Source: a virus
Taxonomy: Duplodnaviria; Heunggongvirae; Uroviricota; Caudoviricetes
IMG/VR virus record: IMGVR_UViG_2513237361_000012
Coordinates: 17,300-81,299 of that record
Direction: 5' to 3' (one strand)
DNA length: 64,000 nt
The notes beneath the pieces were generated by a model that was given only the letters and a program-made list of their open reading frames with translations, did not search any database and was not told the origin of the DNA. Shown one piece after another: positions 26,317 through 27,397 of this stretch; position 1 is the first letter of the stretch; the number at the start of each line of letters is the position of its first letter. A program made the translations under genes and the position numbers.

Positions 26317-26543
26317 TGGCTGATGCAATGGATCTCGTACAGCAGCGCGTTGAAGAAGAACGCCAGCGCCATATCCGTGCTGCCCGTGCCAAAACACCGG
26401 GCGTGTCTCGCGTGCTTTGCATTGAGTGTGAAGCGCCAATTCCGCCAGCACGCCGCCGTGCCATTCCGGGTGTGCAGCTTTGCATTACCTGCCAGGAAAT
26501 TGCAGAGCTGAAAGGCAAACATTACAACGGAGGTGCTGTATGA
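26316..26543 (+). CDS. TraR/DksA-family zinc-finger protein
   Basis: CIECE...CITCQ four-cysteine motif in a 75-aa protein. Confidence 0.6.
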   Translation: MADAMDLVQQRVEEERQRHIRAARAKTPGVSRVLCIECEAPIPPARRRAIPGVQLCITCQEIAELKGKHYNGGAV

Positions 26544-27397
26544 GCACCATTCTGAAATGGGCGGGTAATAAAACCGCCATTATGTCCGAACTGAAAAAAT
26601 ACCTTCCTGCTGGCCCGCGACTGGTTGAACCTTTCGCGGGTTCTTGTGCTGTGATGATAGAGACGGATTACCCCAGCTATCTTGTTGCGGATATTAATCC
26701 TGATTTAATCAACCTCTATAAAAAGGTTGCTGCTGATTGCGAGGCGTTTATATCTCGTGCCAGAGCTTTATTTGAGGAAGCAAACAGTGAGCTGGCTTAT
26801 TACAACATAAGGCAGGAGTTTAATTACTCAACTGAAATTACTGATTTCATGAAAGCGGTATATTTCCTGTATCTCAATCGTCACGGTTACCGTGGGTTAT
26901 GTCGCTATAACAAGAGCGGGTATTTCAACATTCCCTACGGTAATTATAAAAATCCGTATTTCCCTGAAAAAGAAATTCGCGCATTTGCAGAGAAAGCCCA
27001 GCGATCAACGTTTATCTGCGCCAGCTTTGATGAAACGCTGGCGATGCTGCAGGTGGGGGATGTGGTGTATTGCGATCCGCCTTATGACGGTACGTTTTCC
27101 GGTTATCACACTGACGGCTTCACTGAAGATGACCAGTATCACCTGGCATCCGTTCTTGAACATCGGTCATCAGAAGGACATCCCGTCATTGTTTCTAACA
27201 GTGACACATCCCTGATCCGTTCGCTGTATCGCAATTTTACTCACCACTACATCAAGGCAAAACGCAGCATCAGTGTGGCAGCTGGTGATAGTAAATCTGC
27301 AACAGAAATCATTGCTGTTTCCGGGGCGCGCTGCTGGGTGGGATTTGATCCTTCGCGTGGCGTAGATAGTTCTGCTGTGTACGAGGTGCGTGTATGA
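26540..27397 (+). CDS. dam: Dam-type N6-adenine DNA methyltransferase
   Basis: Start at [11 protein letters not shown]; FAGS SAM-binding motif and DPPY catalytic motif. Confidence 0.85.

Follow-up and report, generated by a model that had tools for sequence, protein, structure and literature searches.

The stretch of 64,000 nucleotides analysed here (the window) covers positions 17,300 to 81,299 of the IMG/VR virus record IMGVR_UViG_2513237361_000012 and includes, within a P2-family prophage, an open reading frame (ORF) for a DNA adenine methyltransferase of the Dam family directly upstream of the replication gene A. Translation of the window sequence places this ORF of 285 codons on the plus strand, from an ATG at 26540 to a TGA ending at 27397. 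In the program-made ORF list the start is set at 26480 (TTG), but the ATG at 26540 is preferable: GGAGGT stands just ahead of it, its first bases form an ATGA with the stop codon of the preceding ORF, and it agrees with the RefSeq annotation of Escherichia coli NCTC8623, whose copy is 99.9% identical and is annotated as starting at the equivalent ATG. The gene, its motifs as aligned to E. coli Dam (EcoDam) and its immediate neighbours are listed with lengths in amino acids (aa).

26316..26543, plus strand: TraR/DksA C4 zinc-finger protein, 75 aa, upstream of Dam (PF01258, E=3.1e-11; TIGR02419, E=3.9e-18)
26529..26534, plus strand: Shine-Dalgarno sequence GGAGGT, 5 nt ahead of the Dam ATG (direct reading of the sequence)
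26540..26543, plus strand: ATGA shared by the Dam start and the stop of the TraR/DksA-type ORF (same layout annotated in NCTC8623, G4/9 and RE2010)
26540..27397, plus strand: coding sequence of the Dam-family DNA N6-adenine methyltransferase, 285 aa, stop codon counted in (PF02086, TIGR00571, identity to EcoDam)
26633..26644, plus strand: motif I, binding S-adenosylmethionine, F32-A-G34-S (FxGxG type), aligned to EcoDam F35-V-G37-A
26888..26950, plus strand: DNA-recognition hairpin, aa 117-137 (Y117, R118, L120, R122, P132, Y136, K137), aligned to EcoDam Y119, N120, L122, R124, P134, Y138, K139
27074..27085, plus strand: catalytic motif IV, D179-P-P-Y182, aligned to EcoDam D181-Y184
27394..27397, plus strand: ATGA shared by the Dam stop and the gene A start (from the sequence)
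27394..29808, plus strand: gene A, rolling-circle replication endonuclease, 804 aa, downstream of Dam (Pfam Phage_GPA, E=5.5e-127)

The protein is matched by the whole of the PF02086 (MethyltransfD12) profile (positions 1-253 of 253; E=3.8e-75, 253.3 bits, cut-off 22) and by positions 1-266 of 267 of the TIGR00571 'Dam family' profile (E=5.5e-95, 318.1 bits vs a cut-off of 114.85). Among solved structures, chains of EcoDam come top (E=5.7e-73), followed by DpnM and T4 Dam, and alignment with EcoDam (PDB 2G1P) gives 47% identity (121/255 aligned residues). The sequence P-F-A-G-S spans aa 31-35, and the succession of motif I (aa 32-35), recognition hairpin (117-137) and DPPY (179-182) is the alpha-group order. 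A preliminary description of this DNA had recognised a full Dam-class enzyme from its FAGS and DPPY motifs; both motifs are present, and the profile matches lie far above chance. Against the equivalog model for housekeeping Dam, NF008152, the protein scores 286.5 bits, under the cut-off of 441 and so outside the range of orthologues, and by sequence it is classed as a phage paralogue, not the host housekeeping enzyme. The top PADLOC model is that for orphan methyltransferases (oMTase, 4.7e-110), PHROG 56 'DNA methyltransferase' matches at 1.3e-119, and no restriction-enzyme gene was found among the assigned ORFs of the early operon that surrounds it.

In EcoDam the residues that read GATC are K9, Y119, N120, L122, R124, P134 and Y138 (PMC4417163). 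Six of these seven are identical here (K6, Y117, L120, R122, P132 and Y136, for EcoDam K9, Y119, L122, R124, P134 and Y138), among them R122, the counterpart of R124, which is the main discriminator of the G:C pair. Given the family assignment, the motifs, the six retained contacts, the oMTase model and the lack of a restriction gene nearby, the protein is taken to be an active, GATC-specific orphan enzyme.

The gene lies in a run of plus-strand genes with short or overlapping junctions, extending from the CII-type regulator through A, which is the layout of an early lytic operon. Its order is CI (minus strand), then apl-like, CII, fil-like, DUF5347, DUF2732, TraR-like, Dam and A (all plus strand). 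The earlier placement of Dam between the regulatory genes and gene A is thus borne out, with CI and CII upstream and A overlapping it downstream. Further features of this region are:

22629-23804, minus strand: integrase
24044-24619, minus strand: CI repressor, 186-type
24638..24666, plus strand: promoter-like TTGACG-17-TATGTT between CI and the first early gene (consensus scan)
24987-25502, plus strand: CII
27420..27442, plus strand: terminator-like hairpin with T-rich tail, 26 nt into gene A (consensus scan)

From the layout of pR in phage 186, the site at 24638-24666 is likely to be the early lytic promoter that transcribes Dam, and the consensus scan found no further plus-strand promoter-like site between 24666 and 31428. 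Together, the sole upstream promoter-like site and the 186 layout suggest that expression of Dam would be confined to the firing of the CI-repressed lytic operon; in the 186 record the homologous operon is under CI repression. Inverted GTGAAC/GTTCAC motifs around the putative early promoter look like CI operators. The promoter spacer contains one GATC (24656-24659), directly ahead of the -10 hexamer, and another lies at 24690. All 11 variants of the immunity region retain both, including those of two Dam-less relatives (L071 and L074), a conservation that is uninformative because the variants are 87-99% identical.

The expression pattern suggested by this layout bears on an idea raised in the preliminary description, that the enzyme alters methylation-dependent regulation in the host, which we regard as unlikely. 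A lysogenic-conversion gene acting on host GATC methylation and Dam-dependent regulation would accord with the finding that over-expression of Dam perturbs cells, triggering retron Sen2, and that host Dam is limiting (bioRxiv 10.1101/2020.06.22.160242); accessory genes of P2-family phages are, besides, often expressed in the lysogen, P2 old and tin being examples. However, Dam is embedded in the early lytic operon, overlaps codons of both neighbours and lacks a promoter-like site of its own, the homologous 186 operon is CI-repressed, and almost every GATC site is already methylated by the host, leaving little to change. For these reasons the methylome of a lysogen would also be uninformative on the phage enzyme.

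The 186 record further states that translation of A needs translation to the end of the preceding ORF, and that a terminator inside A, tM1, acts when A is untranslated. Since Dam holds the slot preceding A, as the 186 ORF does, and a hairpin lies within A (27420-27442, a possible counterpart of tM1), translational coupling of Dam and A can reasonably be inferred. The GATCs at 29278 and 29328, which lie within gene A some 90-140 nt ahead of a P2-ori-like sequence, yielded nothing decisive.

The distribution of the gene was surveyed in 5426 complete E. coli genomes and in 80 species-representative loci that encode a relative of gpA. Near-identical Dam DNA is present in 1239 of the E. coli genomes, always annotated 'DNA adenine methylase' and adjoining a 'replication endonuclease', and 53 phage records, including Salmonella phage RE2010 (genus Felsduovirus) and many Klebsiella P2-like phages, carry Dam at > 80% nucleotide identity. 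The exact protein is entered at NCBI as 'MULTISPECIES: DNA adenine methylase [Escherichia]', with 35 contigs. The 90%-identity protein cluster that contains the window Dam (2341 members) also includes replication endonucleases of 793-808 aa, one of them its representative; this mixture is probably a database artefact, chained through ORF calls that run across the Dam/A overlap.

At the species level, 33 of the 80 loci have a Dam homologue 3-1616 nt ahead of A and on its strand; the genera concerned include Citrobacter, Pantoea, Tatumella, Serratia, Photorhabdus, Pectobacterium, Providencia, Erwinia and Salmonella, and the full-length ORF is conserved across genera at 58-99% identity. In P2 the slot before A is occupied by orf83 (DUF5405) and in 186 by ORF82-84. 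As the preliminary description had proposed, Dam is not part of canonical P2 or 186: it is absent from both records, and the window protein has no tblastn match in either (L002, L003). The gene is nonetheless common, and its absence from these two phages does not make it unusual. The position ahead of A is variable, with Dam a frequent occupant, since in different phages A is preceded by nothing extra, by Dam, by orf83 or by ORF82-84.

We propose that the ORF probably encodes an active orphan GATC-adenine methyltransferase and serves as an accessory early-lytic gene of a Felsduovirus-like (Fels-2/RE2010-type) P2-family prophage. Dam would be transcribed only from the CI-repressed early promoter, after infection or induction and together with gpA, and would accordingly be produced with gpA as rolling-circle replication begins, its translation being linked to that of A in the way reported for the ORF that occupies this slot in 186. 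Endogenous Dam is limiting for higher-copy DNA (bioRxiv 10.1101/2020.06.22.160242), and for this reason a phage-encoded supplement could bring rolling-circle progeny DNA quickly to full GATC methylation. Fully methylated progeny would be shielded from DpnII/MboI-type restriction enzymes, whose target is unmethylated GATC, and from the action of MutH and SeqA on hemimethylated sites. We infer that topping up GATC methylation during lytic growth is the most likely role, and protection of phage DNA by the enzyme, suggested in the preliminary description, appears plausible. The P2-like part of the window contains 3.57 GATC/kb, with an observed/expected ratio of 0.81, compared with 1.82/kb (0.44) in the Mu-like DNA on its left and 1.65/kb (0.32) in the lambdoid DNA on its right. 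Undepleted GATC accords with a phage that has no need to avoid this site, although as one comparison it carries little weight.

Several points weigh against this proposal. All known hosts are Dam-positive, and the need for extra methylation is argued from enzyme dosage. The gene is dispensable for the phage life cycle and its benefit conditional, because P2, 186 and some close relatives do without it: in L065 (4583-4830) and L077 (8717-8973), whose gpA is 81-83% identical, there is no Dam and the zinc-finger ORF directly abuts A, a clean presence/absence polymorphism. The P2-like prophage of the window is moreover broken in gene H at 46382, for which reason this copy may never enter a productive lytic cycle. 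Finally, EcoDam N120 is replaced by R118 and the phosphate contact R137 by N135, and five residues that follow DPPY in EcoDam are missing. In consequence the kinetics or the flanking-sequence preference of the enzyme could differ from those of EcoDam.

These replacements, the shortened loop after DPPY and the score of 286.5 under the host-Dam equivalog cut-off of 441 might also be read as signs that the protein is inactive or has drifted from GATC, and that the ORF is kept mainly as a translated leader delivering ribosomes to A; what the 186 record notes as needed for A is that the preceding ORF be translated, and not the protein it encodes. We consider this very improbable. The catalytic and cofactor motifs and six of the seven GATC contacts are intact, the full-length protein persists across genera (58-99% identity), which points to selection on the product itself, and Dam-less relatives translate A right after the zinc-finger ORF, so that a long leader is unneeded.

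A second question is the relation of Dam to the retron that shares the element. The preliminary description held that the co-occurrence of Dam and a retron matched the Ec67 element, and the window does contain an Ec67-family reverse transcriptase (RT), which matches model NF038237 at E=4e-212 and is typed by PADLOC as RT-Toprim type I-C, a single-gene system. Dam lies 4.9 kb upstream of it. The RT starts at the ATG at 32283 and ends at 34043 (586 aa), the program-made ORF beginning at a GTG at 32214. The retron occupies the following interval:

32052-34043: retron Ec67 unit, with retron-specific DNA from about 32052, just right of the cohesive-end site cos

We set msr-msd at 32113-32245 from terminal inverted repeats and from the sequence of the Ec67/Eco2 non-coding RNA; an Rfam search of 22000-36000 at E<=0.1 gave no match, the retron msr included. 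There is no GATC, and hence no Dam target, within 32113-32245.

When the window is aligned with P2, 186, RE2010 and strain G4/9, the cohesive end of 19 nt falls at 32025-32043 (GGCGTGGCGGGGATACGAG). Similarity to retron-free phages stops at about 32052, after which G4/9 has a DUF262 gene and RE2010 an AIPR gene. A cos-adjacent defence hotspot between gpA and gpQ has been described by Rousset et al. (PMC9122126), and judged by these alignments the retron is swappable cargo in that hotspot. The Ec67 RT was found in 14 of the 5426 E. coli genomes, all 14 with Dam about 5 kb upstream; conversely, only 14 of the 1239 genomes that carry Dam have the retron, and the two are not inherited as a unit. 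A 34-kb Ec67 element is reported to contain a Dam ORF (PMC7826664, citing Hsu et al. 1990), and the title of Hsu et al. 1990 claims Dam methylase function for it. The likeness to the Ec67 element noted earlier therefore holds, in that an Ec67-family RT is present and Dam is reported in the element (PMC7826664). The co-occurrence is nevertheless incidental, reflecting a shared phage backbone and not a functional pair, because so few Dam carriers have the retron and because the retron sits in a separate, replaceable cargo hotspot.

It is most improbable that Dam is a functional part of the Ec67 retron, acting through the GATC cluster at 31929-31943 or through methylation of the multicopy single-stranded DNA (msDNA). 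Such a link has a precedent in a different retron, Sen2, which is triggered by Dam methylation of a GATC in the msDNA hairpin (bioRxiv 10.1101/2020.06.22.160242). The 14/14 association and the presence of three GATCs within 15 bp, about 170 nt upstream of msr, would also fit it. Yet Ec67 is present in just 14/1239 Dam genomes, its msr-msd is without GATC, retron-specific DNA begins only at about 32052, and the GATC cluster falls on the left side of cos, within backbone that is common to the retron-free phages with DUF262 (G4/9) and AIPR (RE2010) genes. A functional membership of Dam in the retron is thus largely refuted by distribution. Control of a retron promoter by the triple GATC was likewise considered and rejected, the cluster being part of the cos-flanking backbone of retron-free phages too.

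The GATCs of this cluster begin at 31929, 31933 and 31940, and the outer two form a GATC-N7-GATC pair 96 and 85 nt left of cos (32025-32043). We surveyed the region in 61 distinct cos-left sequences from 85 related loci. Each of the outer GATCs is kept in 57 of the 61, while the 7-nt spacer between them has 18 variants. Because the pair is kept while its spacer varies, selection appears to act on the GATCs themselves. Extra third and fourth GATCs are explained by relatedness, since they are confined to the clade nearest the window.

In phage P1, Dam is required for cutting at pac. An analogous arrangement, in which the phage Dam licenses packaging or another cis-acting step through the cos-side pair, would be in keeping with this retention, with the 11-bp spacing that sets both GATCs on one face of the helix, and with the lack of the pair in P2 and 186, which also lack Dam. 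Among 50 species-level loci with a cos-like site, however, the pair is present in 9/22 Dam-positive vs 10/28 Dam-negative loci (Fisher p=0.77), and co-variation of the pair with phage Dam was rejected on this count. The pair follows the type of cos end (...GGGGnTACGAG) and not the presence of Dam; Dam-less close relatives retain it (L065, L069, L071, L072, L074, L076 and L079), and host Dam could serve equally well. We therefore regard a packaging licence dependent on the phage enzyme as improbable, and we know of no experiment that ties cos cutting in the P2 family to methylation. It is similarly doubtful, to about the same degree, that the pair at 31929-31943 is a methylation-sensing element of this cos type, which might for example delay terminase action or SeqA release until methylation is complete, with the phage Dam, where present, speeding the licensing. 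If true, this would be a P1-pac-like form of control not described for P2-family phages.

The surrounding DNA places these features in a composite setting, the window holding parts of three prophages. It is 99.0% identical to NCTC8623 over 18952-46382 only, and collinearity ends at 46382, within gene H for the tail fibre; ogr, attR and the genes for the P2-like tail sheath and tube are absent from the window. Beyond this point (46383-58500) the DNA is lambdoid and its genes run in the opposite direction, among them lysis genes, Q, NinG, O, SieB, a DnaB-type helicase and an S24 CI-like repressor. The break could have arisen by inversion between prophages or by deletion, or could be a join made in assembly. 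Seeds of 14, 12 or 11 nt did not reveal in the window the 26-bp direct repeat (att) that is reported to flank the Ec67 element, because the prophage ends at 46382 and its right end is not in the window. On the other side, 1-18950 is a Mu-like prophage, with MuA transposase (15655-17742), MuB (14626-15579), GemA, a GH108 lysozyme, terminase, Mu portal, protease I and the head protein gpT, apparently inserted in the ybjI/ybjJ region.

Two further genes of the P2-like element match defence families. A minus-strand ORF of 352 aa at 30572-31630, matched by PADLOC PD-T4-7 (E=1.9e-143) and by no Pfam or PHROG family, is an anti-phage defence gene; it belongs to the hotspot on the left of cos and is also found in retron-free relatives such as G4/9. 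A DUF4917 protein at 21538-22521 (minus strand), with a match to the PADLOC candidate defence family PDC-S21 (E=2e-121) and a weak SIR2-like match, is encoded between rcdA and the integrase. Since this gene is missing in G4/9 from the same prophage, inserted at an identical site, it is probably cargo at the att-int end.

The Dam gene itself is already known and ordinary, being routinely annotated and having been reported in the Ec67 element in 1990; present in roughly one complete E. coli genome in four, it has little weight as a discovery. What the analysis does settle is that Dam belongs to the phage backbone and not to the retron, so that the pairing of the two is no evidence of a functional link.

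Compared with known systems, the window protein shares with P1 Dam and T4 Dam (1Q0S, 1YFJ) the character of a phage-borne GATC adenine methyltransferase (T4 Dam matches at E=1.4e-16), but these are far more distant in sequence, and the pac role of P1 Dam has no demonstrated counterpart in the window. P1 Dam acts like host Dam in the Sen2 trigger assay (bioRxiv 10.1101/2020.06.22.160242). EcoDam (2G1P, 2ORE, 4GOL, 4RTJ) has the same fold family, DPPY, FxGxG and six GATC contacts, whereas the C-terminal 25 residues of the window Dam are unrelated to it and the gene is phage-borne and lies in a lytic operon. With 186 ORF84 (CP84) and P2 orf83 the gene has in common the slot immediately upstream of, and overlapping, A, although those ORFs encode a PAPS-reductase-like protein (186) and a DUF5405 protein (P2), neither of them a methyltransferase.

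The Dam ORF of the Ec67 element, described by Hsu, Inouye and Inouye (PNAS 1990), is reportedly 285 aa long and about 44% identical to E. coli Dam, and the element is said to have been recognised by Dodd and Egan in 1996 as a 186-related prophage. The window agrees with the published account of that element in combining a Dam ORF and retron Ec67, which PMC7826664 assigns to an element of roughly 34 kb. The window retron lies immediately right of cos, in keeping with the title of Dodd & Egan 1996. The P2-like element of the window adjoins rcdA. It differs from the Ec67 element in being broken at 46382, so that the reported 26-bp flanking repeat is not found in the window. Close counterparts exist in Felsduovirus and related Peduoviridae (among them RE2010 and the Klebsiella phages ST437-OXA245phi4.2, ST512-KPC3phi13.2 and KP12), with Dam at 92-96% nucleotide or protein identity. 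These phages have the same order of DUF2732, DksA-like zinc finger, Dam and A, and differ in their cargo elsewhere only, which is the retron in the window and AIPR in RE2010.

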